In this document: piece after piece, positions 2,831-27,098 of the stretch
How positions within the stretch are numbered: the stretch's first letter is position 1
Layout of the letters: each line of letters opens with the position of its first letter
Virus record (IMG/VR): IMGVR_UViG_3300031999_007842
Location: 1-53,707 of that record
Direction: 5' to 3' (one strand)
DNA: 53,707 nt
Source: a virus
Lineage: Duplodnaviria; Heunggongvirae; Uroviricota; Caudoviricetes
Notes under the pieces: model-generated
The model's input: only the letters and a program-made list of their open reading frames with translations
The model's database searches: none
Told to the model about the DNA's origin: nothing
Translations under genes and position numbers: made by a program

Positions 2831-2880
2831 GAAAAAAACATAGGGAACGAGATCCACAAAGGGATCCGTGCCCGGATCAT
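2831..2880 (-). terminator. T-tract terminator with GATCC/GGATC hairpins after the capsid gene
   Basis: Minus strand GATCCgggcacGGATC / GATCCctttgtGGATC followed by TTTTTTTC. Confidence 0.5.
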
Positions 2881-2908
2881 TCAGGTAAAGGCTAGCTTAA
2901 GGTTAAAC

Positions 2909-3940: not shown

Positions 3941-4005
3941 TTTCTCTTTCACCCTTATTGGTGTTCTAATATACAACGGAGTAATATTATATTTAAGACT
4001 TGTTC

Positions 4006-4278
4006 TTAGTCTTCATCGTTTTTAGAAGCAGTCTTTCTCTTGATAAGATTGTGATCTAGTGCATAGATGACCAATTCACCAAGATGAACTTCCTTGAGAT
4101 CCTCCTTAAGAGCTTCCTTGTCAATAGCTTCCTCTTGTGGCACAGGTTCTTTAGACATCTGAGCTTGGGACTTAGCTATTTCAAGTTTAGTCTTAGCTGT
4201 CTCTAATTCGATTAGAGCTTCTACAGCCTTCTGGAGATCCTTCACCTTATCTTCTAACGTCTTCTCTTCAGTTGACAT
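4006..4278 (-). CDS. Small acidic coiled-coil protein, possible scaffold
   Basis: 90 aa, heptad-rich, between protease and MCP; GAGG SD. Confidence 0.4.
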   Translation of the reverse strand: MSTEEKTLEDKVKDLQKAVEALIELETAKTKLEIAKSQAQMSKEPVPQEEAIDKEALKEDLKEVHLGELVIYALDHNLIKRKTASKNDED

Positions 4279-4339
4279 TCTAATCTACCTACCTCATTGA
4301 AATGGGGATTGTACTAATAAATGGGGAAATAGAGGGTAT

Positions 4340-6465: not shown

Positions 6466-6825
6466 TTAATGGTCCTCCTTTTTCTTAAATCTTTTTTCCC
6501 AATTACAATTGGCACAGAGCAATTGATAATCTCGAGAACCTGATTGTAGTTTCTGAAAGATGAATTTCAAATAGGAATATCGAGAGCCTTTGAATCGTAA
6601 CCATTCTCTCTTTCCACCCCCATTGACATGATCAATTTGTAAAGCTAGACCAAAGTATCCGCATTTAGAACACTTATTGCCTAGAAACTGATGTACTTGT
6701 TCCTTTATTTTATCTTTTGATCTCTTACTATAGATTCTGCGTTGTTCCCTATGTTGAATATTATATTCTCTATTATGTTCCAAGACTTTAGATCGATTAG
6801 CGAGATACCATTCATGTTGGTTCAT
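6466..6825 (-). CDS. HNH endonuclease
   Basis: LGNKCSKCG..LQIDHVNGGG..YQLLCANCNWEKR; paralogue of the first module in 1451..2050. Confidence 0.75.
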   Translation of the reverse strand: MNQHEWYLANRSKVLEHNREYNIQHREQRRIYSKRSKDKIKEQVHQFLGNKCSKCGYFGLALQIDHVNGGGKREWLRFKGSRYSYLKFIFQKLQSGSRDYQLLCANCNWEKRFKKKEDH

Positions 6826-10974: not shown

Positions 10975-12573
10975 CTAAGTTGGTGCTGCTACAGTATCTC
11001 TTGCCAGGGTGATATATAAGGTAAGACCAGTTAGACCTATTGTGGCATATTGCCTTACTGAGACATATCTGGTCTCCACCCCAGGAGTAGATTTTCTAAC
11101 CCTCACAACTATATCTGCACCTGCGGAGCCTGTGTAACCCTCTGAGGCTTTACCGGTTCCATCAGTATCTTCATTCATCAATTGTGTGTAGGGAGAATTA
11201 CGGAGAAAGATAGCAGTTTGAGCGTCTTGGATAGGGCCACCATCCTCATCTGATACATATACTATTAAGGGAAGAGAGGTTTGGATATCCACGGTTCCTG
11301 AACCTGTAGCACTCCAGGTCGTGGCATCAGAATTTGTGTTCTTAACTACCAGGACTCCAGAGCCAGCAGAGAAATAGATGTCGTATGTATTCCCTATGAA
11401 TGTAACATTGACAAGATCTATTGTTCCAGCCGAGGCCACTTCTATTGCTTTAGGATTGTTGATGAATGAACAGTAGGAGAGATTGTGAACCAGAGGCAGT
11501 TTACAGGCAATATCATCTGCTGAAATGAAATTGCAATATGAGATCTGAGTGAGTTGAGCATCCACCTTTGCTCCAGCTTCAAAGTTTGTATTCTTGGCTC
11601 TACTGTCTGCCACATTAGGGAAAGTAATTGTGGAAGCATCAAAGAAGTTTGTTCCAAAGAGTCCAAATGTATTAAGGTAGTCACTTGGATCTGGAGCCAC
11701 AACATTGAACTTGGGAGCTCCTGAAGTTCTGAAAGCACATCCTGATACTTCAGTCGTTGGATCCCCGAAGTAGACTTCAGTGATTGTACTAGAGTTCCCT
11801 TGCACGGTTAATGTATAAAATTGGGCAGGAAAGTCTGTAGTCTCAGGTGTTCTATATACAAGCACTTCAGAAGTGTCTTTGAAGTAGGTAGGCCATGTGG
11901 AACTATTCCCTATCGTCACGTTTCCTTTACTAATTAGGATACCATTTTCTCTAGACATTAAGCCATATTTGTTGGCAACCAAGTCTTCTGCAGTAATGAA
12001 ATCATCGAAGGTAGCAGGAGCACCTGAGGTCCCACCACGAATTGAAAGTCCAGTCCCCCAGCGTACTGCATCCCAGAAACAGTTGGGAGTTACTTTTGCT
12101 AGAGCTTTTACTGCCCAAATTATTCCAATCTTAGAAACTGCAGTTAGATCAAGAGTTCCAGCTGAAGCATTGGCCGTAGCACCAGTGTGAATAGCAAAAG
12201 GTGTCCAGGCTCCTCCCCATGTATTATTTCCTGCTAAATACCAATCTTTATAGTTACCTGCAGAACTCTCTATTCTAATTCCGAGTCCTCCTTCCGATTT
12301 TAATCTCAAAATTGAAGGTTGGACTGTCATTGCCCAGAAGACAACGAGTTTGTTAGTAAGATTTGGCAAAGTTGCCTTGATAGAAAAGTAAGTAATTATG
12401 ACAGTTCCTGGGGATGCCTTACTTACTTTAACTGAGTTGGAAGTAGATCCTTGGATAAAATCAACAGTGTCAGCCGTTGGCGCTGGAGACCAATCTGTGA
12501 TTGTTTCACAATCACTATATGTAGTGGAAGCTCCTATAAAGAATGCCAGGTCTGTTTCAACTGTTCCTGCCAT
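10975..12573 (-). CDS. Virion protein with probable beta-helix and Ig-like parts
   Basis: 532 aa, S/T/G/A-rich, repeated 'YCNFIS/YCSFINN/VTFIGN' strands, C-terminal transthyretin/Ig-like segment. Confidence 0.5.
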   Translation of the reverse strand: MAGTVETDLAFFIGASTTYSDCETITDWSPAPTADTVDFIQGSTSNSVKVSKASPGTVIITYFSIKATLPNLTNKLVVFWAMTVQPSILRLKSEGGLGIRIESSAGNYKDWYLAGNNTWGGAWTPFAIHTGATANASAGTLDLTAVSKIGIIWAVKALAKVTPNCFWDAVRWGTGLSIRGGTSGAPATFDDFITAEDLVANKYGLMSRENGILISKGNVTIGNSSTWPTYFKDTSEVLVYRTPETTDFPAQFYTLTVQGNSSTITEVYFGDPTTEVSGCAFRTSGAPKFNVVAPDPSDYLNTFGLFGTNFFDASTITFPNVADSRAKNTNFEAGAKVDAQLTQISYCNFISADDIACKLPLVHNLSYCSFINNPKAIEVASAGTIDLVNVTFIGNTYDIYFSAGSGVLVVKNTNSDATTWSATGSGTVDIQTSLPLIVYVSDEDGGPIQDAQTAIFLRNSPYTQLMNEDTDGTGKASEGYTGSAGADIVVRVRKSTPGVETRYVSVRQYATIGLTGLTLYITLARDTVAAPT

Positions 12574-13825
12574 TCATCTTTTTCCTCCTTTGTTCTATTC
12601 TCCACTTCTTCGCACGTCTCCTAGCAAAACTAGCGATCTCCGGGCGTGTATCCTCTCTACAATCATAACTTTTACATGACATAGGGAGATTAGGCCAGAG
12701 CTTGCATCTTCTGTTCTTTTCATCGAAGAACTGGCACTTATCATCTTTGATATCTAGAACTGCAAGGTACTTAGCTTTTATTCCTTGTGCTTTCAGCCAG
12801 TCTGGTAATGGGTCATATGTGACTGGAAACTTGTTGGTTAGAAATTCCTCTGCGTTAAGAACAGGTCTAAGAGATCCTCTGCAACTGCATGGAGCAGGAC
12901 ATCCATCACACATCGATGGTTTCTGCAGACCTTGCTCTATAGTAGCCACCTTAAGCATTTCACCATCTTTTGGAATATTCCAAGTTCTTACCTGGATTTT
13001 TCCTTTAACATTTCTTGTCGTAATATCATCTTTCACCCATTTTCTTATCTTCTCTTTTGCTTCTTCTTTAGTAGCCAGTCTAGCTCCATGAAGAACAGCA
13101 AAAGATGGATCAAGAGTAGGAACATAACCTAATTTCTTTGCTCGTACTGCGAACCAAGTTTGTTCCCAAGAATGGAATTCAGGCATCATTTCGCCCTTAT
13201 GAGGAGGTTCAAACTTGGCTCCTTTGTGGATTACTTCAGATTTGATTAGGACTGCAGTGGTGGAGACATCTTCAAGTTTATAGAGAGTTGTTCTAACATC
13301 TTTTGGATATGATTCAAATAAAGCCATCACCTCAAAAGGACTACCTCGCAGTGCCTCTCCATTAAAGATTCTAAGCTTTTTTTCCTTGTCATAAATCAGA
13401 GGAATTAAGCAAAGGATAGGAAGATCTTTCGAAACCATAGCAGGAAGATTATTAGATAGATTAGTTATGTCTGAATCTAGCATCAAGACAAAGTCTTCAT
13501 CGCTCAAAGGTTTTAAAACCAGGTCCCTTGCAAACCCAATTTTGGTACATCTTTCTCTCGCTTTTCCAGGAGAATGACGATCTTCCCATGATAGTTTGTA
13601 CTTGAAGTCATGCTTTCGTATGAAGACTTTAGAGAAATCCTTGCCTTCCCATTCCTTCCACTTCTGGATAGCTTCCCAGGTTCCATCATCAGAGTCTGAC
13701 TCAAGAACAGATAGTGATAACTTATCTCTCGGGTAATCAAGATGCAGGAGAATATGCTCTAATGGCTCCAAAAACCTCTTCGAGTTCTTCATGGGGATAG
13801 CCACTAGAATCTTTGGGAGATCCAT
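12557..13825 (-). CDS. GT-A (GT2/Anp1-like) glycosyltransferase fused to a Cys-rich YkgJ-like domain
   Basis: ILVAIPMKN, ESDSDDGT, FVLMLDSDI (DxD); C-terminal CDGC..CSC..CQFFD..RCKLW..PMSCKSYDC. Confidence 0.7.
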   Translation of the reverse strand: MDLPKILVAIPMKNSKRFLEPLEHILLHLDYPRDKLSLSVLESDSDDGTWEAIQKWKEWEGKDFSKVFIRKHDFKYKLSWEDRHSPGKARERCTKIGFARDLVLKPLSDEDFVLMLDSDITNLSNNLPAMVSKDLPILCLIPLIYDKEKKLRIFNGEALRGSPFEVMALFESYPKDVRTTLYKLEDVSTTAVLIKSEVIHKGAKFEPPHKGEMMPEFHSWEQTWFAVRAKKLGYVPTLDPSFAVLHGARLATKEEAKEKIRKWVKDDITTRNVKGKIQVRTWNIPKDGEMLKVATIEQGLQKPSMCDGCPAPCSCRGSLRPVLNAEEFLTNKFPVTYDPLPDWLKAQGIKAKYLAVLDIKDDKCQFFDEKNRRCKLWPNLPMSCKSYDCREDTRPEIASFARRRAKKWRIEQRRKKMNGRNS

Positions 13826-13826
13826 G

Positions 13827-14162
13827 TTAACCCGCCTTTTCCCTTCCAACATGTTCCTCAGCTAAGTAGATTTCTTCTCCCTTGATCTGAAGGTCAACTA
13901 TCAAAGCTTTCTTGAACTTGGGTGAAGGTTTCCATTTAAGCACTAGAGGTTCCATCTTCCCAGGTTGGATTGTAGTTGGGCCATGTACTTCAAGAATTTC
14001 TGTAGGAGGCAAATGAGGAAATACAAACTCAAGGTTAGATAAGACTGCCTTTGAATCATTCTCTAAGTATACAGTGAGGGTCTTTTCATTCCCCACTTCT
14101 ACCTTTCCGAAGTGTATTTTCTGGAGAGGTATCTTCTTCTCAGCATCTGCCCAGATTTTCAT
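13827..14162 (-). CDS. Stand-alone Ig-like (ASH/PapD-like) domain protein
   Basis: IHFGKVEVGNEKTLTVYLEN..IQPG..LVLKWKP pattern. Confidence 0.55.
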   Translation of the reverse strand: MKIWADAEKKIPLQKIHFGKVEVGNEKTLTVYLENDSKAVLSNLEFVFPHLPPTEILEVHGPTTIQPGKMEPLVLKWKPSPKFKKALIVDLQIKGEEIYLAEEHVGREKAG

Positions 14163-16402
14163 TCTTTCTGCGCCTCAAGCCATTTCTCGATGAGTTCTAG
14201 TTTCTTCTTCTTGAGCTCTAGCTCTATTTTTCTTTCTTCAGGAGTCTTTTCTCTCCTTCTAAGTTCCTCATCTATTATTCTAGCTAGAGCTTCATCTTCA
14301 ACACTCTTATGTTCCTCCCTTATTAGTTCTCCGGCCCATGTGTGAAGCTCATTGCTTTTGATCCAATCACTTGCTTGAGTAATTGTCCATTTATCTGAGA
14401 ACTTGATTCTCGAGACTCTAGCTCCATGAATGGTTCCAGGTCTAGGATAGAGGCATATTAAGACTTCCTGAACCTCTGCAGGAACATCTTTCAAAGCAGG
14501 AACATACTTCTCTGGATTGTCTACACATCTGGAGAATTCTCGTTGGTCATAGATCTCCAACCAGAAATAGTCCCACCCTGCTTTCCTTATTTCTTTGAAG
14601 GGTGCGAAATAGTCTCCTTTACTTGGGTCGCCTGCACTTAGAGGATGGGGAACTTTTGCTCTCTCAAAAAAGCCCACACCCTCTCGTTCTAGGTAGACAA
14701 AGTAGCCCTTCAACTTCTCACCTTCAAACTCCATTGAATAGAACCTAGGAGGATTTTGGTCAATTAGTACAACCTTTCCTTTGTCAATTGGCGTAACATA
14801 AGTCTTGAGATCTCCAACTTTCATCTCAGTCTTTGGTTTGTCTATCTTCATCCAGGGTTCCGGATTCTTGCATATCTTATACATTGACTTATAGCCAATA
14901 CCTTCACCTTTAATATCTAAAGGATTACCCCAGATATTGAATTCAAAGCTCTTGCTTATTCTTACATCCCAATGCTTCTTAAGACCTACTGAAGTTTCTA
15001 TCTCATGAAGTTGTAATACAAAGGTAGCTCCTTCAAGATCCTCCGAAAGTCCCTCGATAGTATAAATTGAGCTTCCTTTCTCTTCCTGAGCAATACGTCT
15101 TTTGCCAGCCAAATCCTTACCATGGAATGTGACTAAAAGAACTTCTGCTCCTTCAACTATCTCAGTATCTACTGAGCAAGATCCTTTGTCTATGATAGTC
15201 ATCTTGCCAGTCAAAGACTTCGATGGATTATATTTGCTATTAGGAGGGATATCTCCTTCGAATGAAATCCACTTCTTGTCAACTATGCCTTCATAAGTCA
15301 AAGGAACTGGGGAGAATCTAGTGAAATCTGTCTCTGCTTTCCAGGAATGAACCTTATCTCCTTCTTCAATCCTTAAGAACCATTTTTGATTAGGAATGCC
15401 TCTGACAACCACTTGTCCCATATAAGATAGATAATGGACTACGAACTTGGAACTTGTTCCCTCCACTTGATGTTTGATTGCACCACAATAGGCTTCTGGA
15501 TTACCTTTGTCCTGGTTCTTTCTGACACAATCAGCGAAGTCCTTATAACCAGCAAATGGTAGCTGTTCAAGCGACCTTGCTTTCTCTTCCTTCTCTTTTC
15601 CTGCAGGGGCTGCATTTCCTCTACCAGCCCAAGCATCTTTAACCCATGTTTCCCAAGCTTCATATTTTTCACCCTTTCTCCAGTCTGGTGGTACAGGAAT
15701 GTATCCCTTAGGAGGCTTCCATTTCTTCTTAAAACCTCTGTCTATAGCGTAAGGGACTTGATCTCCAGGGATCAGAACTCTCCACATCATTTCTGTGCCT
15801 TCCTTAGGTTTCTTTGTCTCTGGATCTATTACGCTAACATTGACTGCTCTCACCACTATTCTAGTCCAGTCTCCTGAACTGAAAGGTCCATCCCTCCTAT
15901 TACTCTTAATGAAGTACTCATGGAAATAGGGTTTCTGAGTACCAAAGTAAACCTTGCCTGTATCTATTATTATTATGACTCCTGGATGTTCTTTGGTAGC
16001 TCCTACCTCTCCAGGTTTAAGTATTCCTTCAACGGTCAACCATACCTTAGGTTGTCTGGCTTTCGTTTCTCCTCTAAATCCTTGGTTCTTATTCTCACTC
16101 TTGAATTCGAATCCATTGCTTCTGATAGCCTCTTTTCCTTCTTCCATAGTAGAGGCTGGTTTACTAATTCCACCTGGTGTCAAGACTGTCCACCCAACAA
16201 GATGGTCATCTATTTCCATTCTCCAGTCTGTGTGCACTGAACGACCTCTGATGTGCCATTGCATTACATAGCTAAGTTCCTGCTTAGTATCTGGATATTC
16301 CATATAAGGAGCAAGTAAAGCTCCACCTTCTCCTCCTTCTCCACCTTTTGGAGTTGATTTGAGGACTTCTAGCCAATTAATCATTGAAACTTTAATCTTC
16401 AT
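14159..16402 (-). CDS. Protein with three tandem LigD-type 3'-phosphoesterase (PE) domains
   Basis: YVMQWHIRGRSVHTDWRME..IIDTG; FVVHY..KWFLRIE..IIDKG..FHGKDLAG (degenerate); FVLQLHE..KHWDVRIS..PIDKG..FEGEKLKG. Confidence 0.7.
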   Translation of the reverse strand: MKIKVSMINWLEVLKSTPKGGEGGEGGALLAPYMEYPDTKQELSYVMQWHIRGRSVHTDWRMEIDDHLVGWTVLTPGGISKPASTMEEGKEAIRSNGFEFKSENKNQGFRGETKARQPKVWLTVEGILKPGEVGATKEHPGVIIIIDTGKVYFGTQKPYFHEYFIKSNRRDGPFSSGDWTRIVVRAVNVSVIDPETKKPKEGTEMMWRVLIPGDQVPYAIDRGFKKKWKPPKGYIPVPPDWRKGEKYEAWETWVKDAWAGRGNAAPAGKEKEEKARSLEQLPFAGYKDFADCVRKNQDKGNPEAYCGAIKHQVEGTSSKFVVHYLSYMGQVVVRGIPNQKWFLRIEEGDKVHSWKAETDFTRFSPVPLTYEGIVDKKWISFEGDIPPNSKYNPSKSLTGKMTIIDKGSCSVDTEIVEGAEVLLVTFHGKDLAGKRRIAQEEKGSSIYTIEGLSEDLEGATFVLQLHEIETSVGLKKHWDVRISKSFEFNIWGNPLDIKGEGIGYKSMYKICKNPEPWMKIDKPKTEMKVGDLKTYVTPIDKGKVVLIDQNPPRFYSMEFEGEKLKGYFVYLEREGVGFFERAKVPHPLSAGDPSKGDYFAPFKEIRKAGWDYFWLEIYDQREFSRCVDNPEKYVPALKDVPAEVQEVLICLYPRPGTIHGARVSRIKFSDKWTITQASDWIKSNELHTWAGELIREEHKSVEDEALARIIDEELRRREKTPEERKIELELKKKKLELIEKWLEAQKE

Positions 16403-16427
16403 TGTGAATCCTCTCTTTGATACTTTC

Positions 16428-16438
16428 TATAAAGTTCT
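16428..16438 (-). promoter_or_regulatory. BRE/TATA-like promoter of the PE gene
   Basis: AGAACTTTATA about 26 nt upstream of ATG 16402. Confidence 0.45.
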
Positions 16439-16476
16439 TTGTTTAGAAGGAGGCTGTTCTGATCTTCTAGCTGGCA

Positions 16477-19389
16477 TTAATCTTCCTCCCCTTTTATTGT
16501 TAAATCGTCCTCATCTGTTACCGAGTCTACTTCGAAGGTCTTGTATCCGTAATAATATTTTTTCACAAAGCGACACTTGTAATGGTTAGCAAACTTGCAG
16601 AGTATTGGGAACTTGAGATGTTCTACTTGCACTTTGGATAGTTCATCTCTTGGCTCCCGGAATCTTTCCTTAAGTGGACAGACTTTTTCATCTGCCCAGA
16701 AGGGACATTGTGATAAGTTGAATACCATCTTACCCAGACTTAGCTTTGTGGGACCAGTACTTGCAGCTACTAATTTCTTCACTACATCAAGACCATCTGG
16801 TTCTGTCTTTGAAGCATGCTTCCCACTATAGTATGGGAACATCCATGTATAATAGATCTTTCCTTTATTGTCTTCGTACTCCCCTATTCTGATAGGCCTA
16901 ACTACTATTATGGTTCCCGAACTCACCTTCTCACCTGTAGCATATGAACGTCCTATGAAAAGATAGCATTTCCCACCTTGCCTCACCACATCTTTCTCAC
17001 GATACTTCTCTATTCCAGCACAGGGTACTGAGAAGACACATTCATACAGATATTGGTCCAAAGCTTTTCCTTCTTTAGTCTTTTTCTGTATTACCTTGTC
17101 AACCATCACATCTATCTCTTTGAGGTTTTTGAGTTTAGCCCATTCCTCACTACGTGCTTCTCCAGAGAATTTAATCTTATAAGTAGAATCTGCAGCTTTA
17201 CAGACAACTCCTTCAGAACCTTTCATTGATCTATACTTCTTGACAAGTTTGAAGAATTCCCTCATGTCTTCAGCTTTCTCGCCAGGAACCTTCTTCCAGT
17301 GAGCAAGTCCTGAGAAGATCTTATCTATTGCAGCCCACCGTTCTTCATAGCCTTTTCCATTAATAACTTCTCCATTCAAGAATACACAATCATGGACATG
17401 GAACATTATGAACTCATCATCTAGTTTACTTTCACCTGCAGCTATCCACTTGATCATGCCTTCTCTTGGAAGAGGTTCACAGACTTCCTCGAAGTTCTTG
17501 GTTTCGATCTTGCCACAACCATACTCTACCATTTCAGCATCAATAATGAATGAGTTTGCTTTCTTCTTCTGGAGTATTTCCTCCACTGATTTCTTGAAGA
17601 CATTGGCTCTATCTCGTTGCCTATCTTCTGTGAATATCTTAATCTCTTTTCCTTTACAGTGTATCTGGAATCTCATGCCATCATATTTCTTCTGAACTAC
17701 AATTCCTCTATCTATAAACTTCTTGGCCCACTTGTCCCATAGTTCTTGTGGATCCCAGAATTCATACTTCTCAAATCCAGACCTTGGTTTGATTCCAATA
17801 TGAGGCTTGAATAATTGAGGTTGAGCTCCAGCTAGAAATTCAAACGGGGAACTTCTTTTCATTTCTTCTGCACCAACTCTAAGGAATGCTAACCTATAAA
17901 GGGGAACTGTGAATCCAATTTGAGGCCCTTCGACATCCCAGACAAAATGGAATTTCTTAGCTACCTCAGGATTATTACTTGCTACTTGCTCCAAGAAAGC
18001 TTTCATCGTTGGTTCATGAAGCCAGCCTTGCTTGAAGAGCAGATCTAAATCATGAGAGAGGGGAATAGTTTTCTCATTCACAACTCTTCCACATAGATAG
18101 ACATGGATTGGCTCTCCAACAGTGATAGTATCTGGGAATGCCGCTAGAACTTCCTCTAACTTAATCAGTTTCGCCATTTCCTCGTTAGATATCTGTTGAG
18201 GTAATCCTTCTTCCGGCATAGGATATTCTTCAACTTCAAGTGAAGATTTCCTTGTTAGTTCATCATCTATAGTGTGCTTTATGTTACGATGTCTCATCTC
18301 TGACCAAACGAAGATGTGAGCGTTCTCGAGAGGTTCTGTTACTTTCCCTATCTCTTTGAATATCTCATGTAGACGGCTGTCGAGTGCTACTAATTGATCA
18401 TCTGTGAGAGGCTTAATATACACAGGATCTATTTTCTCCAAGTCTTCCCTCTTGATCTCTGAGGGTACTAGTTTAGCCTTCTCTTCCTTTTCTTTGCCTT
18501 TGAAGGGAACATTCTTCTCTCCCACTTGAGAGATTATCCACTCATAAAGTTCTCTGGCATTCTTCTTGTAAGTCTCTGGCTTGTTGAAGGTGAATCCACG
18601 TTTAATCATTTCCTTGAAGATCTTGAGGCCTAGTTCCTTACAGTCTTCGAGAGTGATCTCCTTCTTCTCTTCACCCACCCGTTTGAAGAGTTTCTTTCCT
18701 TTCTTGATGGAAGAATACCAACCTAAGATAATTCTATAATCATCACCCAGTTGCTTATCGTTTGGCTTGTTAATATCATAATCAGAAATCCAGCCTCTTA
18801 TCAGTTCAAAGACTTGGCTCTTGAAGAAGTTTCTGTTGAACAATTCTTCCACTATCTCAGCATAGAGATCTTCTGATAAGATGTCAGCATAATCAAATAG
18901 ATCTAAGACTGTCAGAGTCTTCAAGTCAAGGAACTTGATATTCTTAGCGAATACAAAGACTTGTATTCCTTGAGGAATCTTGACTGGTTTAGGAGGATCA
19001 TATTTTTCTTGAACAGTGAACTCATAAGCATACAGAGGACCTTCCTTCTTCCAGCCCCAGTGTTCAAATGCATCCTCATCAGATATTTGATGTCTTTCCC
19101 GTGACTCTTCAAATTGTTTTGGAGTAATTTCAGTGGGTGCTTGGAGAACAATAATTCCATAGCATAGTTTACCCTCTAGTAAATAGAGTGGCTCATTGAT
19201 ATGAGAAGTGAATTTCTTTGACTTGACTATTAGAGTCTTCTCTCCAGAAACGATCATTTCCGCATGAGGCTTAACAAGATATAGACCTACTTTAGGTTCT
19301 ATGTCAACTATCCTCTTTGGAACCATAGGCTCTATCCCCTCTGTGGTAGTATTATCCAAGTCAAATCTTTCCTTTTTCACCCTATTCAT
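16477..19389 (-). CDS. lig: Multidomain ATP-dependent DNA ligase (ASCH-like, helical modules, Pol-beta-like NTase, ligase, OB, Cys-rich tail)
   Basis: Ligase motifs KKYDG (I), IDAEM (III), FHVHD (IIIa), EGVVCK (IV), WAKLK (V); YLCGRVV..HDLDLL NTase-like motif; N-terminal LYLVKPHAEMIVSGEKTLIVK ASCH-like motif. Confidence 0.85.
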   Translation of the reverse strand: MNRVKKERFDLDNTTTEGIEPMVPKRIVDIEPKVGLYLVKPHAEMIVSGEKTLIVKSKKFTSHINEPLYLLEGKLCYGIIVLQAPTEITPKQFEESRERHQISDEDAFEHWGWKKEGPLYAYEFTVQEKYDPPKPVKIPQGIQVFVFAKNIKFLDLKTLTVLDLFDYADILSEDLYAEIVEELFNRNFFKSQVFELIRGWISDYDINKPNDKQLGDDYRIILGWYSSIKKGKKLFKRVGEEKKEITLEDCKELGLKIFKEMIKRGFTFNKPETYKKNARELYEWIISQVGEKNVPFKGKEKEEKAKLVPSEIKREDLEKIDPVYIKPLTDDQLVALDSRLHEIFKEIGKVTEPLENAHIFVWSEMRHRNIKHTIDDELTRKSSLEVEEYPMPEEGLPQQISNEEMAKLIKLEEVLAAFPDTITVGEPIHVYLCGRVVNEKTIPLSHDLDLLFKQGWLHEPTMKAFLEQVASNNPEVAKKFHFVWDVEGPQIGFTVPLYRLAFLRVGAEEMKRSSPFEFLAGAQPQLFKPHIGIKPRSGFEKYEFWDPQELWDKWAKKFIDRGIVVQKKYDGMRFQIHCKGKEIKIFTEDRQRDRANVFKKSVEEILQKKKANSFIIDAEMVEYGCGKIETKNFEEVCEPLPREGMIKWIAAGESKLDDEFIMFHVHDCVFLNGEVINGKGYEERWAAIDKIFSGLAHWKKVPGEKAEDMREFFKLVKKYRSMKGSEGVVCKAADSTYKIKFSGEARSEEWAKLKNLKEIDVMVDKVIQKKTKEGKALDQYLYECVFSVPCAGIEKYREKDVVRQGGKCYLFIGRSYATGEKVSSGTIIVVRPIRIGEYEDNKGKIYYTWMFPYYSGKHASKTEPDGLDVVKKLVAASTGPTKLSLGKMVFNLSQCPFWADEKVCPLKERFREPRDELSKVQVEHLKFPILCKFANHYKCRFVKKYYYGYKTFEVDSVTDEDDLTIKGEED

Positions 19390-19760
19390 GTCACGTAAAC
19401 TGCCTTGATTTTAGCTTCTGTTTGTGCTTTCTCCTTTAGAACTTCAATCTTCTTAGCCTTTGCCTCAGCTCGTTGTTTCTTTATTATTGCTGTATATTTG
19501 AGATCTAGGTTAAGGAACTCGATAGCAAGTCTTTCGAATGTAGTAGAAAGATCTCTAAGTTCTTCCTCAGTTAACTTCTCCATAATCAATGGATTCATAA
19601 GCCAAGCATTCCAACCAGTCACAGATGCAGCTAAAGTCCCATTCATGAAAGATAGTTTTGAGACTAAAGAGAGACGATCAGTTAACTTCCAGTTCTTGAT
19701 CTTTTCTTTCTCTTCTTCTACTTCTGCAATCCAATCTCTTTCTTGGTCATTCATTTCCAT
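19386..19760 (-). CDS. Hypothetical helical protein
   Basis: 124 aa, coupled to the ligase start (4-nt overlap). Confidence 0.5.
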   Translation of the reverse strand: MEMNDQERDWIAEVEEEKEKIKNWKLTDRLSLVSKLSFMNGTLAASVTGWNAWLMNPLIMEKLTEEELRDLSTTFERLAIEFLNLDLKYTAIIKKQRAEAKAKKIEVLKEKAQTEAKIKAVYVT

Positions 19761-20122: not shown

Positions 20123-22543
20123 TTAAGAATTCTCCTGCCTCTGTCCTCTCCTCTTGATTTTGGCTCCTAGCCTTTGAATAAGTGTATAAGCCTTCTTCCT
20201 ACCCAAGAGAATTCTTGCAAATGTGTGGATTGTAGGTATGAAGAAGTGAAAAATAATTTCAGACAAAATTAACTGATCAAAGATGTGTTTGAAGAAACTA
20301 TTGTAGGCTAACCCTGTAAGCACTAGTAGATCTTCTAAATACTTGCCAGCAATTTTAGAAAGTGCATCATGAAGAAGAAGAATCTCTTCAGAGAACTTCA
20401 TTACTTTGAGAGGTATAATTCCAAAGAGTGAGATTGACTGGTGCAAGGTTCTACTTACAGTCTTTAGAGGTTCTCCCAATAGTGTGAGAATATCAGATAA
20501 GAACTTGTTGCTTTCAAAAGTGATATTTCCTCTTGGCTTGATTACCTTGAAAAGCGCCCAAACTTGTAACTTTCCTCTCGAGACAAGCAACTCAGATATC
20601 TCTTTCCAATGCTCGAAGGTCATAGTAAATGTAGAACCACTGAGTATTATTGTTCTAACTGGATTCGTTGAACTATCTTCCCATTCCTTGAAACGCCATT
20701 GCCATGACCTGATTGGTTTAAGATACAGAAACTTGATCAGATGCCCACCACCAGAATTATTGATAGAGTATGCTAGACTAATTCTTTCATCTCTAACTAA
20801 CCTGTCAGCATTTATAAGTCCACCCCAGTCTGTAGAGTTTGTTCTAGTGGAGAGGCCAGTAGCACTCTCATTAACTAGGTCAATCATAGAGAACCATGCA
20901 TTCTGGGATCCACAATACTTGATTAAGCCAATGTGGTTATCAGAAGGAGCATGAGCTATGAATATGTATAGATCACCGGTACTTTCGTCCAGAACTATTC
21001 TAGTATCGTGGTCTAATCTAGAACCAGAGAAAAGAATCCTCTCTGCACTCCAAGATCCTGAAGGATCTCTTTTTAGATATCTAACTTGGTAACTGTTATT
21101 CAAGTAGACCAGATGAACATTTCCAGTTGTGTCTACAACCGCACTGTAAGCCCAGTTCTCTCCACCATCAGGATATTGATTGACTGTTCCTGTTCCTGTT
21201 ACTGTGGACTGTGAACCCCAAGAACCTGACCAGAGATAGCTTTTTATTGTTTCAGTTGTCTTCACTGCCAAAACTAAGAATTTGCTTTCAGGCAAAGCTA
21301 GTATGAGATTCCCTCGAAAATCATATGCAGCAATCGTTGAAGGAACACAAGCTCCTGCACTCCAGAGTCCATCTGAAGTTACATCATGGGGATCGTTTCT
21401 ATACCTCATCTGTATGCCAGAAATAGAACCAGTCTTGGAATAGTGCCAAACATTAAAAGCTCCTCCATCTGGTGAGAATTCATAAGAATGATCAGTCAGG
21501 GGTGAAGGTCCAGGTTGTCCTGAGCAGTATGCCTCGTGCATTAACTGCCAGGAGGGGCTAATCATTGTCAAACTTCCATTCGATTCTGGTCTAAAGATCC
21601 CAAGTTCCAGATGTAAACTCACCTTGACATGAATATGGAAGTAAGTTCCATCATATATAACTCCAGCAGTTTCTCCATATTTGTAATTTACTCCTCTCAC
21701 GGTAGTCTTGGTTCCCCAATTAATTCCATCTGGGCTGTTCTTATAGTACATGATAGAATCAGTATCTGTCCAGAATACCCAATGATATCCATTTGCATAG
21801 AATACTTTGTCTAGCCACCTAATAGCATAACTATGACTTGCAACAGCAACTGAATTAGGCCCTATCTCTTCAAAAAGATCATGAACATCTGAAACTGCAG
21901 GTCCAGTAAGAGTCAAAGTAGAGCCAGTTGGAAAGCTTGAAGAATAGGAAGTAGTCTTAGGATTAAGTATACCATAAAGAGAATTTCCTGTGATATCAAA
22001 AGCTACTTGCCCTGGTTGAGCTTGGACTGTCAAACCTGTTTCTGAGACAGTTTCATATGTAAGACACCAATAGGCTGGCTGAGATCCTGAGCTTTCAAAA
22101 CTTCCAATTGGAGAAGGAGGAATACTGCAATTAGAGGCTTTGTAACTTAAATTAAAACTGGTGCCTCCAGAAGCATTATTAATTGTCATCCCTCCCACAG
22201 AATAGTAGCTACAAATAAGAAGAACAAAATGGTAAGTCCCAGGAGACAATAAGATATTAAGAGGACAAGGCATTTCAAAAGCCCCGGCACCACTTCCCGA
22301 GTTGCTCTGCTCTGAAGATAGATAAATTAGAGTTTCTTTTGTTGAGTCAGACTCATAGAAATAAACTGCTATGCGCCAACTAACATTCCAAGAACCTGGA
22401 GCAAGAGCTGCTCTCCAGGAAAAGTTAGTTGCTAAAACCCAATTAGACAATGTAAAGTTTAATCCACCATGGAAAAGGCGAGAGTTCGCGAGCGCATTCC
22501 AACCTCCACCAGTAGGTACTCCACAATTACCCATAGTTGCCAT
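20123..22543 (-). CDS. Putative fibre/receptor-binding protein with beta-propeller and shaft repeats
   Basis: Asp-box-like YYKNSPDGINWG and YLKRDPSGSWS; C-terminal ~19-aa K-x-L-x-E-x-L-x-L-x-D repeats. Confidence 0.5.
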   Translation of the reverse strand: MATMGNCGVPTGGGWNALANSRLFHGGLNFTLSNWVLATNFSWRAALAPGSWNVSWRIAVYFYESDSTKETLIYLSSEQSNSGSGAGAFEMPCPLNILLSPGTYHFVLLICSYYSVGGMTINNASGGTSFNLSYKASNCSIPPSPIGSFESSGSQPAYWCLTYETVSETGLTVQAQPGQVAFDITGNSLYGILNPKTTSYSSSFPTGSTLTLTGPAVSDVHDLFEEIGPNSVAVASHSYAIRWLDKVFYANGYHWVFWTDTDSIMYYKNSPDGINWGTKTTVRGVNYKYGETAGVIYDGTYFHIHVKVSLHLELGIFRPESNGSLTMISPSWQLMHEAYCSGQPGPSPLTDHSYEFSPDGGAFNVWHYSKTGSISGIQMRYRNDPHDVTSDGLWSAGACVPSTIAAYDFRGNLILALPESKFLVLAVKTTETIKSYLWSGSWGSQSTVTGTGTVNQYPDGGENWAYSAVVDTTGNVHLVYLNNSYQVRYLKRDPSGSWSAERILFSGSRLDHDTRIVLDESTGDLYIFIAHAPSDNHIGLIKYCGSQNAWFSMIDLVNESATGLSTRTNSTDWGGLINADRLVRDERISLAYSINNSGGGHLIKFLYLKPIRSWQWRFKEWEDSSTNPVRTIILSGSTFTMTFEHWKEISELLVSRGKLQVWALFKVIKPRGNITFESNKFLSDILTLLGEPLKTVSRTLHQSISLFGIIPLKVMKFSEEILLLHDALSKIAGKYLEDLLVLTGLAYNSFFKHIFDQLILSEIIFHFFIPTIHTFARILLGRKKAYTLIQRLGAKIKRRGQRQENS

Positions 22544-25284
22544 TAGTCTTCAACCTCTCTAAGGAGAACCCATTCTTGCTCTTTAAGTACTTTCTTGGTT
22601 GAGAAAGATATTATGACATCGGAGAAATTAGAACTTGGGAATAGCCATTTAGTAAATCTATTGAGGCAGATCCCTGGGAGAGACAGAATCTGTGTGTAGA
22701 ACTTTTCTTGAGGAGCTGGTTCACCAGCCATGCCAATGTATTCATTGCTAGCAACTACACAGTCAAAGTAAAGATCTGGGCCATAGCCAGAAGAATGTCC
22801 TCTGGTCCCAAGTTCCATGTACTTTGGTTCTCCCTTGTCTGCGTTGTTGAGGCCAGTTAGATTGATCTTTAAAGTTCTATTTACCCATAACTTTACTTCT
22901 CCAGTCCCTGCTCCAGTAAGTACTCTTAACTCATATTGCCACCATTGCTCAATTGGCCAATCTAGATCTGTATCTAATGTAACATAGGAAGAATTATTTC
23001 TGTAATATACTCCCATTTTGCTAACAGTGGCAGCCTCCATACAAAATGAAGCAATTAGGGTTCCATCTTGGGAGCGAACTGTAATTGTGTAGGCCGGTTT
23101 ATAGAAGGACCACGAGTTGGCTTTGTAGATCCAAGCACTGACATGGACAGGATTGCTTGCGATCGCTTTCTGTGCCCAAGTATAAGTCCAATTTCCATAG
23201 ATATAGAGAGAGTAGGAACCATGATGATGCTGAGATGTGACAATAGAAGGAAGAGGATTTCCTCCAAATGTGTCAAGGCGTATTAAGTTTCCTGTTTCAA
23301 AACTTGTTGAGAAGAGAATAGGCACAATTCTGACATTTGGAGCAACAGGTCTTCCATAGACTTTAAAGGAAGTATCTCTGGAAGACCAGACTTGCCATAG
23401 ACTAGACAAATAGTAACATAGGTTACCAGAATGGACATCAGTACCAGAAATAGACACCCGCAAGAAATTAGTACTATCAAATGTTCCAGACTTTACTACT
23501 AAGACTATACAATAATGTTGATCCTGCAGAAGTATTTGGCTATCACCTGAAAAGATAAAATCTTTCCACGTAAAAGAGTTAGATACTTGAGAGACATCAA
23601 AAGGATCACTCTCTGCAAGAATTTGTGAATCAACTGGAACATCTTCTGGTATACCAGTCGAGCCATAAGTTCCTGTCATGGAATAAACTCTAGCAACTAT
23701 AGTTCCTGTAGGAGTACCAGTCTTTAGCAGTCTGAAAGTAGCTTTAGTAATAACTCTATAGCCTGGGTCTGGAACTGTGAAACATTGACCAATAGCTGAA
23801 AGCTTTGCTTCAGAAGTTGGATGTACTCTCTCAAGACGTTGCTCTGTCACAGCACCTGGATATTCATCTAGAAGTTCTTCTGGATCTTGTAAAGAAGAAG
23901 AACTTAGTCGTACTTTAAGAATGTCAAGTAACAAAGCTAATTTAGCAATGAAGAAAGACTCTACTAGCTGGATTGTCTGCCCTAGGGGTTTGTAAACTAT
24001 AGAAGTTGAATAATTATTGATATCAAGAGTTTGAGTGAGGGACTTATAGGCATTGTTCAGTAGATTTTTGGCAAGACTCAATCCTTCGATTAAAGGCTGA
24101 CACCAAGCTGGTGTGGAAAGATCTGATAGTTGAATCGTCTCTTCTTTTGAGGCAAGTTCTGCCCTTTTCTGTGAAGTAGGAATTAAATGAAGTAATTCCC
24201 AAATATTCTTTGGATACCATGGAAAGAAAAGTACTTCAAGAGTTAATAAGGCCTCAAATAGAAAAGTTTTCCTAAAACTAATTACTAATTCTAGAAAGGA
24301 AAGAGTCTCACTAGCAGAGAGAGTAAGAATTGGAGTTTCTTCTGATCCCCAAGTGCTGTGTTCTGGTTCGGGATTAACATACTTAGAAATAAATAGCCAA
24401 TCCAATACTGCTGAACCACTTGATATTGTAACGGTCACACCGTAAACAATATATGCTCCTGTTTCTGGTGTTGCATCAGTGCAAGTTTTTGTTGGAGAGT
24501 CATTTCTTGTTACAGAATAAAGTGAACCTACTTTTGTCAAGGTTACAAATTGTGGAGTGCTACTTTTAGCTATTGTAGTTGTTCCCGTGGAAATATTACT
24601 TACACTATAAAATCTGAAATTAAAGCTGGAATAATAATGGTCATATTCATGTACACATGGACTACCCAGGCCTATACAAGAAACATTTTCAACAGGCTGA
24701 ACTGAACCTCTAACTGCTAAGATTACCGCTGCATTATTAGTATCTGCATAATATGAATATCGTACTCTATAATCTGTTATTGGAGTCCATGTTCTATATC
24801 CGAATTGTCCCTTAGCTAGACCTGCTGGAGTAATTGTCAGTTTACTATTTGCTATGGTTGCTCTAGAAGAGAGAGTCCATCCAGAACTGCTATCTAGATG
24901 ATCAAACAATATGAAAGTATTGACCCCATTGCTCGTAGTAACGGCATCATCTTTTTTATAATAAACATAAATCGTTTGAGCCACAGATTCTAAACTGTCA
25001 GTCACTTCGACCCAAAATATTGCAGAAGTACCGGAAGTAAAAGTTTGCATCCAGCAATCAAGGACGGTAGTTCCATTGCTGCCAGTAAAACATATGTCTC
25101 CAAAGTCGTCCCTACAATTAGAGCCTACATAGACTTTCCCAGCAGTTACTCCGTTAATAGTTTCTGTTCCATTTTCTCCAGTAGTCTTGTAAACTTTAAT
25201 GCAGACTTGATAGTGATCTCCTGCACCAGCTGCCGCATTTATGACATGACTTCTACGTAAGTTCCAGCCAGTTAGCCAACCCAT
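22543..25284 (-). CDS. DUF2341-domain fibre/receptor-binding protein
   Basis: W..RRSHVI..DFGDICFT..LDCW..AIFWVEV..IYVYY DUF2341 motif; shaft repeats; lectin-like C-terminal domains. Confidence 0.6.
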   Translation of the reverse strand: MGWLTGWNLRRSHVINAAAGAGDHYQVCIKVYKTTGENGTETINGVTAGKVYVGSNCRDDFGDICFTGSNGTTVLDCWMQTFTSGTSAIFWVEVTDSLESVAQTIYVYYKKDDAVTTSNGVNTFILFDHLDSSSGWTLSSRATIANSKLTITPAGLAKGQFGYRTWTPITDYRVRYSYYADTNNAAVILAVRGSVQPVENVSCIGLGSPCVHEYDHYYSSFNFRFYSVSNISTGTTTIAKSSTPQFVTLTKVGSLYSVTRNDSPTKTCTDATPETGAYIVYGVTVTISSGSAVLDWLFISKYVNPEPEHSTWGSEETPILTLSASETLSFLELVISFRKTFLFEALLTLEVLFFPWYPKNIWELLHLIPTSQKRAELASKEETIQLSDLSTPAWCQPLIEGLSLAKNLLNNAYKSLTQTLDINNYSTSIVYKPLGQTIQLVESFFIAKLALLLDILKVRLSSSSLQDPEELLDEYPGAVTEQRLERVHPTSEAKLSAIGQCFTVPDPGYRVITKATFRLLKTGTPTGTIVARVYSMTGTYGSTGIPEDVPVDSQILAESDPFDVSQVSNSFTWKDFIFSGDSQILLQDQHYCIVLVVKSGTFDSTNFLRVSISGTDVHSGNLCYYLSSLWQVWSSRDTSFKVYGRPVAPNVRIVPILFSTSFETGNLIRLDTFGGNPLPSIVTSQHHHGSYSLYIYGNWTYTWAQKAIASNPVHVSAWIYKANSWSFYKPAYTITVRSQDGTLIASFCMEAATVSKMGVYYRNNSSYVTLDTDLDWPIEQWWQYELRVLTGAGTGEVKLWVNRTLKINLTGLNNADKGEPKYMELGTRGHSSGYGPDLYFDCVVASNEYIGMAGEPAPQEKFYTQILSLPGICLNRFTKWLFPSSNFSDVIISFSTKKVLKEQEWVLLREVED

Positions 25285-27098
25285 TATTCATAACCCTCCA
25301 ATCTTTCACTAAGATAAACTCTCAACCTGTGATAGTATGTCTTAACATAGTTGATTCCCTGGAGTAGATGGGCAGTACAGAAATAAATGGTTGGAGAGAG
25401 ATTCCAGTTTATAATCTGTATAGTCAATAGTTCCAGTAAAGAGAGAAGAATCTTCTTAGACTCCATATCTTCAAAAAGCAATGCTTGGACAAGTGCTTTA
25501 GTTGCTTCCTTTCCCAAGATATCTTGGAGATGAACACTATCTTGTAGGGAAGTTTCAACTTCTGTGATAAAAGATATGAGTATTTGATAAGTTTCAAAAA
25601 CTTCCTTCGAAGCAGTCTTAGTTAGATTGTCGAAGAATTTACCTCCTCTAGTGTTGACAGCAGTTATTTTCCCTCTGAATCTGAAAGTCTCTCTGAGCGA
25701 AAGAGGACCTTCAACATATTCTAGGGATTCATCAAGGGCTTCTATGTATACTGAACTAGAAACACTATTCCAATCGGAAGCAAAAGTCACTTCATAGATC
25801 CCATCGCTTGAAAATTCAACATTAACTGGGGCGGATCCAAAGAGAAATCTGATTGTCCCTGTTTTAACTGGGAGTTTTAATATTCTATTCTGGTAATCAA
25901 ACATCCAGTATTTGTTAAAGGATTCTACTCCTTCGTATGTATGATCATAAACAGGCAAGAAGAGACCTTTCCCAGTCTGTGGAACAATCCCCATTAGGAG
26001 AAGATTCCAAATTCCTATAAGAGTTCCAGAATCTGAAACACTGTCATTTGAAGTTGTTTTCCACCGCTTGGAGGGAGAGTCATAAAGGCTAGAACTACTC
26101 ATTATGTATTCCCACCCTTTCTTTGTTCCATCCAACATGGACCGTAGATGAGATCTTGAAACTTCGTCAAGCGTTGTCCAAAATGCATGCAAAGTATACC
26201 AAGTTATGAGGTTGTTGTGAAGTCTCCTCTGGCTGTTAACAGTTTGATGGTGTACTGTGCAATAATATTTAGTAGCGCCATCACAGAATTGTGGAGAACT
26301 CCATTCGGAAGTGATATAGCGATTCTTCAAGTCAATCAAAATCCGATCCCAGTTATTTAATTGATAGCCATTCAAAGCTCGCATCTGGCCAATGATTGTA
26401 GCAAAGCTCGCACCAGAAACTTCCCAACCTGGCATTGAAGAACAGTAATTGAAGTAAGTCCCAGTCCAAAATAGGAAATTGATAGTAGGCCAGAGGAAGT
26501 CTCTTGCATATTCCAGAGAACCCAAGTTGTTTGTTTGGTCCACTTTGTAAAACATCAGAAAGCTTGCAACTGTCTCTGCATTCTCATCATAGAAGCGGGT
26601 TAAGTAATCCCAATAACTATTGTCTCTTGGATCTGCTCCAAGAATACCTTTATTACCTGCAGCCTGACAAACTCCTTTAAGTTCTTGCCACGCAAGAGAA
26701 GAATCCCATTTTGATGTCAGGTAGCCTAGGTCTCTAGCTCTCAAGTATAAAGCAGGAGTCCCCCATCTTTGGGCGCCATACCAGAGATGTCCAGAATCTG
26801 TATTAGTGCTCGGAAGGTGCTTGCTGCCTAGCATTTGAAGATTATTAAGTGTTGTTTGGATTGATGTCAGAAGTGCTGAAGAGGAGATTTCAAGAATCCT
26901 ACAATCCTCCTCTAATTGTGCAGCAAATCTATAGCCAGCCTGAGTTCCTATTCCATTTTGATAATTAATTTCAGCCACGAAGTCCGTGATAGTATAACGT
27001 TTGAGAAGATAGCCTAGATAGATCTTCAAAGCAGAATGTTCTGTATTAGAGAAGTTCACCGTAGCGATAGAATCTAGAATGGAACTAATGAGAGTCAT
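25284..27098 (-). CDS. Putative tailspike with an (alpha/alpha)-barrel-like domain and shaft repeats
   Basis: Helical aromatic-rich N-terminal ~430 aa incl. RFYDENAETVASFL; shaft-type repeats at the C-terminus. Confidence 0.4.
   Translation of the reverse strand: MTLISSILDSIATVNFSNTEHSALKIYLGYLLKRYTITDFVAEINYQNGIGTQAGYRFAAQLEEDCRILEISSSALLTSIQTTLNNLQMLGSKHLPSTNTDSGHLWYGAQRWGTPALYLRARDLGYLTSKWDSSLAWQELKGVCQAAGNKGILGADPRDNSYWDYLTRFYDENAETVASFLMFYKVDQTNNLGSLEYARDFLWPTINFLFWTGTYFNYCSSMPGWEVSGASFATIIGQMRALNGYQLNNWDRILIDLKNRYITSEWSSPQFCDGATKYYCTVHHQTVNSQRRLHNNLITWYTLHAFWTTLDEVSRSHLRSMLDGTKKGWEYIMSSSSLYDSPSKRWKTTSNDSVSDSGTLIGIWNLLLMGIVPQTGKGLFLPVYDHTYEGVESFNKYWMFDYQNRILKLPVKTGTIRFLFGSAPVNVEFSSDGIYEVTFASDWNSVSSSVYIEALDESLEYVEGPLSLRETFRFRGKITAVNTRGGKFFDNLTKTASKEVFETYQILISFITEVETSLQDSVHLQDILGKEATKALVQALLFEDMESKKILLSLLELLTIQIINWNLSPTIYFCTAHLLQGINYVKTYYHRLRVYLSERLEGYE

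Follow-up and report, generated by a model that had tools for sequence, protein, structure and literature searches.

A putative DNA end-healing and sealing module encoded among the head genes of an uncultured tailed virus

The window analyzed here is a stretch of 53,707 nucleotides, the first 53.7 kb of the 156-kb IMG/VR record IMGVR_UViG_3300031999_007842 of an uncultured tailed virus. Two neighboring genes of the window encode an ATP-dependent DNA ligase chain (P0001) and a protein with three tandem domains of the kind found as 3'-phosphoesterase (PE) in bacterial LigD (P0002). Both genes lie inside the head operon and are co-oriented on the minus strand. We suggest that the pair acts as a Ku-independent functional analogue of LigD, one that would heal and seal DNA ends and is probably packed into the capsid. 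We consider this reading about evenly poised. A preliminary description, made from the letters of the window, had pointed to a set of DNA end-repair enzymes in the virion operon. That observation is itself confirmed, and the module can be regarded as a likely variant of LigD-type end-healing and sealing systems.

Domains of the ligase and phosphoesterase proteins

By its motifs and its predicted structure, P0001 is a Lig1-like ATP-dependent DNA ligase with additional domains at both ends of the catalytic core. The features of its gene are as follows.

16477-19389, minus strand: P0001, 970 amino acids (aa), with ASCH, helical, nucleotidyltransferase (NT), ATP-dependent DNA ligase and Cys4 tail segments in one chain
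18934-19308, minus strand: ASCH (PUA-like) domain, residues 28-152, by family profile to 2dp9/1wk2
18205-18804, minus strand: helical domain, residues 196-395, with invariant D216, R219, W224, E352, A357 and Y389-P390
17830-18192, minus strand: minimal Pol-beta-type nucleotidyltransferase-like domain, residues 400-520 (G434; D447-x-D449; D485), by motif and transitive profile match
17119-17772, minus strand: ligase adenylation domain, residues 540-757, with motifs I-V, Pfam PF01068
16795-17118, minus strand: ligase OB domain, residues 758-865, with a motif VI-like WMFP, by structural alignment and invariant motif
16540-16722, minus strand: C-terminal Cys4 segment, residues ~890-950 (C895, C904, C931, C939), the four Cys invariant in 23 sequences, at low model confidence

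The adenylation domain matches Pfam DNA_ligase_A_M at residues 554-754 (E 2.3e-22; 80.2 bits against a cut-off of 26.2). Motif I reads KKYDG (567-571), in which K568 is by sequence the AMP-accepting lysine, and K568, D570 and G571 are invariant in 23 sequences. The remaining motifs read from the sequence are III (FIIDAEMV, 614-621), IIIa (FHVHDC, 663-668), IV (EGVVCK, 726-731) and V (WAKLKN, 750-755). The motif VI-like W849-M-F-P852 (WMFP..K..PD) is invariant among relatives. An AlphaFold2 (AF2) model of P0001 was built on 23 relatives and reached a predicted local distance difference test score (pLDDT) of 75.8. Residues 516-877 of the model align with Lig1-type DNA ligases from archaea, humans and viruses over the adenylation and OB domains (2cfm, 9bs3 and 6bkg; Z 21-24), and the top structural matches are DNA ligases throughout. 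The match to human Lig1 (9bs3) extends over 313 residues with a Z of 22.8 and a root-mean-square deviation (rmsd) of 5.1 Å. The match to 2cfm (Z 24.2, 308 aligned residues) has a high rmsd of 14.2 because the domains are oriented differently. A structure search with the full-length model returned one domain, the ligase.

The structural matches of P0001 start at about residue 484-520. The helical region upstream (196-395), where the N-terminal DNA-binding domain of Lig1 was sought, has no PDB match by profile and belongs to no known family. The ASCH domain is better placed, with a family profile matching PDB 2dp9/1wk2 (TTHA0113) at E 2.6e-5 over positions 3-124 of 125, and the single sequence matching at E 4e-4. 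The Cys4 tail is a probable zinc ribbon, as judged from its four cysteines.

The indirect evidence from sequence and model is consistent with residues 400-520 being a minimal Pol-beta-fold nucleotidyltransferase. The segment contains YLCGR (431-435) and HDLDLL (446-451), so spaced that LCGR is followed by 12 residues and then D447-L-D449, and it thereby carries the NT signature hG[GS] x9-13 DxD with a third acidic residue on the next strand. G434, D447, D449 and D485 are invariant in 22 relatives. Relatives carry the canonical GG or GS behind the first strand. In the P0001 model the topology is strand-G-helix-strand(DxD)-helix-strand(D), with D447/D449 on strand 448-452 and D485 ending strand 480-484. 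A profile search of 1.84 billion representative proteins recovered 102 clusters with the NT domain. The stand-alone P0132 (168 aa; E 8.5e-20 to the NT profile) passes the threshold of PF01909 NTP_transf_2 at 23.2 bits against a cut-off of 21. A broad profile of 79 NT sequences gave weak matches in the PDB, the best being 1ylq at E 0.014. These weak matches are all Pol-beta-fold nucleotidyltransferases down to about E 0.5, and all but one further down. They include AF0614, CD-NTases, TUTase and TdT and are aligned on G..DxD. The profile of the close family found no match among PDB sequences, and Pfam searches with close-family members gave sub-threshold matches to nucleotidyltransferase folds alone (LicD, aminoglycoside adenylyltransferase, NTP_transf_2). 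A search of the ESM Atlas with residues 400-520 gave no usable match, the Atlas's own model being poor. Among 62 NT-domain proteins, 44 have a ligase domain and 13 a metallo-beta-lactamase (MBL) hydrolase. Unlike these relatives, the genome of the window virus has no detected MBL hydrolase. P0001 lacks the domain, yet retains the conserved linker that follows MBL in relatives.

P0002 combines the three PE repeats with further conserved segments.

14159-16402, minus strand: P0002, 747 aa, with PE1, a linker containing a mini-motif, PE2, PE3, a tail domain and a coiled coil, by profiles and model
15617-16291, minus strand: PE1, residues 38-262, an enlarged barrel with insertions (H50, H57, D59, R61), by profile to 3p43 and hhalign to PE3
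15458-15562, minus strand: 34-aa mini-motif PFAGYKDFADCV..YCGAIK in the PE1-PE2 linker, a recurring motif
15041-15454, minus strand: PE2, residues 317-454, a PE fold without metal-binding histidines, by superposition on 3p43
14633-15037, minus strand: PE3, residues 456-590 (H466, H477, D479, R481), by profile to 3p4h
14162-14632, minus strand: tail domain (591-700) and C-terminal coiled coil (701-747), conserved and of no known family

The model of P0002, built with 31 homologs (pLDDT 80.5), contains three beta-barrels, a further domain and the coiled coil. The family profile of PE3 matches CkoPE (3p4h) over the full domain length at E 2.9e-8, that of PE2 matches 3p4h at E 6e-4, and that of PE1 matches MbaPE (3p43) at E 8e-4 through the N-terminal motif alone. 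The modeled PE2 superposes on 3p43 with a Z of 17.0 and an rmsd of 2.1 Å over 120 of 124 residues, and PE2 was the one domain returned by a structure search with the full-length model. Comparison of the repeats by hhalign gave 97% for PE2-PE3, 81% for PE1-PE3 and a weak 50% for PE1-PE2. The tail domain has no PDB match by profile.

The metal ligands of the Pseudomonas aeruginosa enzyme (His42, His48 and Asp50, with Arg52) have counterparts in PE1 and PE3 and none in PE2. The H..HxDxR pattern of PE1 (H50/H57/D59/R61) and PE3 (H466/H477/D479/R481) is kept in at least 90% of 31 homologs. We infer a metal-dependent, 3'-phosphoesterase-type activity for these two repeats. PE1 additionally has an invariant KPYFHEYF at 157-164. 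PE2 is likely under constraint, most simply as a binding module, because it keeps invariant residues of its own (E371, K377, N392-P393 and Q439-E441). A prediction of the complex between P0001 521-970 and P0002 1-262 scored 0.00 and weighs neither way. A GKEKEEKA string common to the linkers of P0001 and P0002 is low-complexity sequence and was not used as evidence.

Much of the preliminary description thus holds at the level of domains. The ligase motifs I, III, IIIa, IV and V that it listed were all located, and the positions given for both genes and the length of 970 aa are right. The nucleotidyltransferase-like domain that it placed upstream, with YLCGR and HDLDLL, is present with invariant catalytic residues and is supported indirectly. 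Its fusion of nucleotidyltransferase and ligase stands as far as it went, having missed the ASCH domain, the helical domain and the four-Cys tail. The claim of three tandem LigD PE-like domains is borne out by the family profile of each repeat, and the retention of H..HxDxR in PE1 and PE3 with loss of the histidines in PE2 extends across the 31 homologs. The structural comparison that it called for agrees with a PE fold for PE2 and a Lig1-type ligase. Profile, Pfam and ESM Atlas searches gave no significant direct match for the NT domain, and LigD_N stayed below threshold.

Conservation of the gene pair and its place among head genes

The record is labeled a provirus by IMG/VR and complete by CheckV. 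The virus probably belongs to a clade of uncultured tailed viruses with archaeal hosts. A host assignment through GTDB was rejected, the five matches being contigs of Guaymas and Juan de Fuca metagenome-assembled genomes that are binned to unrelated phyla and are probably viral. The operon containing P0001 and P0002 is long, with a terminase, a portal and a LonB-like protease at its upstream end and a scaffold/protease and a capsid protein at its downstream end (L numbers denote related loci).

35043-36482, minus strand: T4-like large terminase subunit (TerL), Pfam Terminase_6N/6C
33639-35042, minus strand: portal, by BLAST to the L001 portal (Pfam Phage_portal)
31499-33673, minus strand: LonB-like AAA+ protease, Pfam Lon_C and LonB_AAA-LID
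19386-19760, minus strand: DUF2153 protein, 124 aa, Pfam PF09921, E 9.4e-11
4340-6463, minus strand: gpO-like scaffold/protease homolog, by BLAST to the gene preceding the L001 and L002 Phage_capsid_4 genes
2909-3976, minus strand: HK97-type major capsid protein (MCP), by BLAST to L001 and L002 genes annotated Phage_capsid_4

The stop of the DUF2153 gene and the start of the ligase gene (19386-19760 and 16477-19389) overlap by 4 nt, as do the stop of the PE gene and the next gene downstream. The structural surroundings had been recognized before through neighbors called BppU-like and Ig-like. These labels fall below Pfam thresholds, and the structural context is instead supported by TerL, portal, scaffold/protease and capsid.

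A search of IMG/VR by pattern yielded 60 related loci, to which hidden Markov models (HMMs) for each domain were applied. Of the 50 loci with sufficient upstream DNA, 38 have the ligase gene immediately before the PE gene, upstream and on the same strand. The order in L001 is TerL, portal, LonB, DUF2153, a small open reading frame (ORF), ligase, PE, scaffold/protease, a small ORF and MCP. L014 and L026 have an identical or similar order, and so does L020 up to the end of its contig, which carries no capsid gene. Even the distant L037 and L040 retain portal, NT-ligase, PE and capsid in order, as does L060 without a detected ligase domain.

Fusions link the parts more directly. In ANMV-1 (GenBank KP703175), NT, ligase, PE1 and PE2 form a single protein of 866 aa, annotated just as 'ATP-dependent DNA ligase'. 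The architectures that the preliminary description did not recognize are thus not unique to this virus. Among other relatives, P0060 combines ligase and PE in one protein, and P0062 combines MBL and PE. P0105 has the ASCH, helical, NT and ligase parts of P0001 followed by a C-terminal XkdF prohead protease (E 1.5e-37), with no PE-like part found against the PE3 profile. In ANMV-1 (L005), a gene for a MutT-like hydrolase precedes the fused NT-ligase-PE gene (1913-5800), which is separated by a few kb from the gene for the large terminase. Literature searches on LigD or phosphoesterase in archaeal viruses, on the ANMV-1 ligase and on LigD in phage head morphogenesis found no description of the module.

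Inteins interrupt the same genes in relatives, with clear C1...N|C/S/T junctions. They are located just before and just after ligase motif I, at motif V, before the motif VI-like WMFP (L013), at GPxIG of the NT domain (L007, L017), at QP|xxW of PE1 (L022) and at FG|..KPYFHEYF of PE1 (L013). Since inteins typically lodge in functionally constrained sites, we take these positions as support for enzymatic function of the ligase, the NT domain and PE1 alike, and for KPYFHEYF belonging to the PE1 site. With at least 7 distinct sites in ligase, NT and PE1 motifs (L007, L009, L013, L017, L022, L028, L030, L036), the inteins are unusually dense for a module of two genes.

The mini-motif in the PE1-PE2 linker recurs in 43 proteins at about 55-90% identity. 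These include gp17 of HFTV1 (a gpO-like scaffold/protease), portal-MuF fusions, an S78 protease protein and mycobacteriophage gp97. The motif is placed at the N-terminus of gpO-like scaffold/protease proteins and between the portal and MuF domains of the fusions. Its consensus, PFAGYKDFADCVxKNQDKxxPEAYCGxIKxQVEG, has two cysteines and no Pfam model. The window copy is ~80% identical to the mycobacteriophage protein and ~55% identical to the N-terminus of the haloarchaeal HFTV1 scaffold/protease. Further copies are found at L004 4001-4114 and L006 4001-4102.

Association of the pair with the head is probable on this genomic evidence. The pair is found between portal and capsid genes in dozens of related viral contigs, and this slot is the one occupied by minor head and ejection proteins of tailed phages. 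P0105 is fused to a prohead protease, and such proteins are built into procapsids. The mini-motif is common to scaffold/protease, portal-MuF and S78 proteins. P0001 and P0002 themselves carry no fusion to a procapsid component. The suggestion that the enzymes are virion-associated is thus indirectly supported as regards the head, and their presence in virions would be a further step of inference.

Proposed function, alternatives and comparison with known systems

We propose that the two genes encode halves of one DNA end-healing and sealing machine built partly from parts not found in LigD. The metal sites of PE1 and PE3 (His-His-Asp and Arg) would clean blocked 3' ends by removing a 3'-phosphate or 3'-ribonucleotides. 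DNA would be held by PE2, which has lost its site, and by the ASCH, helical and Cys4 segments of P0001. The NT domain might add one or a few nucleotides to the 3'-OH in place of the primase-type POL of LigD, and the Lig1-type ligase would seal the break through an AMP adduct at K568. The module would most likely be taken up by the procapsid and leave it together with the DNA. In hosts without end joining, it could then join or repair ends and nicks of the linear genome that has just entered. What the computation established are the domain identities, the conserved catalytic residues, the gene linkage, the gene fusions and the genomic position.

A stronger version of this proposal is more tentative, and we think it less likely to hold than to fail. 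It sees the ligase, NT domain and triple PE, with MBL in relatives, as an autonomous Ku-independent end-joining machine packed in the capsid and ejected with the genome. There it would circularize or repair the genome before viral gene expression, throughout the clade and with rebuilt PE sites. According to HMMER alignments, the positions of LigD His84 and Tyr88 are occupied by Q117 and W121 in PE1, Val and W378 in PE2, and K512 and W517 in PE3. In this version the PE-derived domains would work through a rebuilt site in which Gln or Lys takes the His84 position and Trp the Tyr88 position, perhaps together with H161 of KPYFHEYF.

Several findings weigh against an end-healing machine carried in the capsid. 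The equivalents of His84 and Tyr88 are replaced in all three PE repeats. A rebuilt site was thus already present in their common ancestor, and membership of the LigD PE family fails on a defining feature. Mutagenesis in the Shuman laboratory reportedly found both residues essential in P. aeruginosa LigD. No repeat reaches the threshold of LigD_N (PF13298; 17.7 against 31.1 bits) or of TIGR02777 (21.7 against 144), with a precomputed PF13298 match nonetheless present in many homologs of P0002. The NT domain has no significant direct match to any nucleotidyltransferase family or structure, and its assignment is transitive. The mini-motif is absent from many orthologs of P0002. Ku (PF02735) and Mu Gam (PF07352) have no match in the 156-kb record, which extends the earlier observation of a missing Ku beyond the window and leaves no known end-binding partner encoded. 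A kinase of the AAA_33 type for 5'-OH ends was not found in the genome. P0001 is the sole PF01068 match of the 156-kb genome, which contains no other DNA ligase and specifically no NAD-dependent one. Finally, the terminase is T4-like. Terminases of this type usually perform headful packaging with terminal redundancy, after which genomes circularize by recombination and not by end joining.

The last two points feed the strongest competing explanation, which we judge less likely than the favored reading but a serious alternative, well ahead of the others. The enzymes might remain unpackaged and serve as the only viral DNA ligase and end-cleaners, sealing Okazaki fragments and repairing nicks, gaps and ends in concatemers so that the packaging motor can run. 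The location in the head block would then reflect a late need. A T4-like terminase packages concatemers, and the 4-nt overlaps with late genes fit late expression as well as packaging. The ligases of Nidhogg Asgard viruses are also filed under replication, where a 'ligD' ligase with a zinc finger is listed, a link made here by description only (bioRxiv 10.1101/2021.07.29.454249). Against such a role, the slot from portal to scaffold/MCP is kept across very divergent relatives, P0105 is joined to its prohead protease, and the mini-motif is common to proteins of the head interior. For a replicative ligase, a triple PE protein and the added NT and ASCH domains would also be superfluous.

A role in RNA repair appears improbable. 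Transfer RNAs cut by host anticodon nucleases, for example, might have 2',3'-cyclic or 3'-phosphates removed by PE or MBL, their 3' ends rebuilt by the NT domain and the break sealed by the ligase. The PE domain of LigD acts on 3'-ribonucleotides, ASCH is a PUA-like domain of a kind found in RNA-binding proteins, and the MBL hydrolase of relatives is of the PhnP or RNase Z-like group. However, the ligase is of the Lig1 type with an OB domain, its match to DNA_ligase_A_M (2e-22) far exceeds that to RNA_ligase (7e-4), its best structural matches are all DNA ligases, and a polynucleotide kinase was not found in the genome. The preference for DNA over RNA as substrate is a prediction, as are each of the activities, the packaging into capsids and the time of action.

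Least probable of all is a mainly structural or DNA-binding role of P0002 in the head, with PE catalysis lost and the ligase left as sole enzyme: the substituted His84/Tyr88 positions, the missing metal ligands of PE2, the coiled-coil tail and the head-protein mini-motif would fit, but the strong retention of His-His-Asp-Arg in PE1 and PE3, the inteins in PE1 motifs and the fusion of PE to ligase or MBL enzymes in relatives speak against it.

The proposed end-healing and sealing module resembles bacterial LigD, the Ku-dependent enzyme of non-homologous end joining (NHEJ) in P. aeruginosa and Mycobacterium tuberculosis, which joins POL, PE and LIG. Both systems bring together an ATP-dependent ligase, a PE fold and a nucleotide-adding domain in one gene neighborhood or chain, and the PE fold and its His-His-Asp-Arg site are held in common. 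The differences are substantial, however. In place of an archaeo-eukaryotic primase (AEP)-type POL, which neither Pfam nor NCBIfam detected in P0001 or P0002, the module has a putative minimal Pol-beta-fold NT domain, and its ligase is Lig1-like. The PE domain occurs three times, has Trp where LigD has Tyr88 and lacks an equivalent of His84, and ASCH, helical and Cys4 domains are added. The module also comes without Ku and is encoded in a viral head-assembly operon.

Archaeal enzymes offer closer counterparts to single parts. In the split NHEJ set of Methanocella paludicola (Ku, Lig, Pol and PE; PDB 5dmp), PE and ligase are separate proteins as in the window. The stand-alone CkoPE (3p4h) and MbaPE (3p43) are the best structural and profile matches of the PE repeats. 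These archaeal PE enzymes are cellular, single-domain proteins with a full catalytic set, whereas P0002 has three fused repeats and an altered site and is accompanied by neither Ku nor an AEP polymerase. In the eukaryotic NHEJ set (Artemis MBL nuclease, Pol X, PNKP and Lig4) the likeness is one of parts only. Relatives of P0001 join MBL, a Pol-beta-fold NT domain and an ATP-dependent ligase, and the 3'-end cleaner adjoins. Yet the MBL of relatives has no detected beta-CASP, the NT domain of ~110 residues lacks the accessory domains of Pol X, and P0001 has no MBL.

Among viruses, Pitcher et al. are said to have described in 2006 that mycobacteriophages Corndog and Omega encode Ku and use host LigD for genome circularization. 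Whereas those phages supply Ku and rely on the LigD of the host, the window virus brings the enzymes and no Ku, and circularization would here be a possible role. Capsid cargo and ejection proteins encoded beside the portal include MuF-domain polymorphic toxins, the T4 internal proteins and gp2, and the N4 virion RNA polymerase. Like P0001 and P0002, they have genes between portal and scaffold/capsid, and the mini-motif is also found in portal-MuF fusions. In contrast to MuF cargo, neither the P0001 helical domain nor the P0002 tail domain shows similarity to portal-MuF fusion proteins, and the module is putative cargo. We know of no capsid cargo protein that is a DNA ligase or an end-repair set.

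Other genes of the operon and wider meaning

Several further genes of the operon merit mention. A DUF2153 homolog adjoins the ligase-PE pair in 14 of 61 loci according to a single-sequence HMM (including L001, L002, L008, L014, L020 and L026). The family has so far been annotated just as 'conserved in archaea', and it is here translationally coupled to the ligase gene. In the window as well as in four long contigs of relatives (L001 4339-6369; L014 3906-6077; L020 2358-4556; L026 1466-3592), the LonB-like gene comes immediately after that for the portal, and it looks like a conserved head-module gene of the clade. The scaffold/protease homolog contains a low-complexity stretch rich in Tyr, Pro and Gly as well as repeated Cys motifs. 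The latter match the chitin-binding Peritrophin-A model (CBM_14, E 9e-14), which is odd in a head scaffold protein. The N-terminal part of the homolog resembles HFTV1 gp17 when the printed sequences are compared by eye. A small ORF among the head genes (6466-6825, minus strand) has an HNH-like Cys/His pattern (CSKCG..DH..CANCN) and may be a homing endonuclease. Two glycosyltransferase genes lie within the structural operon, an Anp1-like gene with a CxxCxxCC domain (12557-13852, minus strand) and a GT4 gene (29937-31115, minus strand). They adjoin genes for large DUF2341 proteins (22543-25284 and 27095-29398), and their embedding suggests that virion surface proteins are glycosylated.

The mini-motif may be a general module of the head interior and is worth a study of its own. 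If the stronger proposal of a capsid-packed machine is true, no set of DNA-repair enzymes would have been known as virion cargo before this one. Presence of the module in the particle would add a complete DNA end-repair kit to a cargo repertoire of phages and archaeal viruses that comprises toxins, polymerases and anti-restriction proteins. It would also help to explain how linear genomes of viruses withstand entry into hosts mostly without end joining and into hosts armed with nucleases. The module could yield compact and probably thermostable ligase and end-polishing enzymes. Packaging aside, the module may represent a natural experiment in rebuilding LigD, in which another nucleotide-adding fold and a triplicated, re-wired PE presumably perform the same job.

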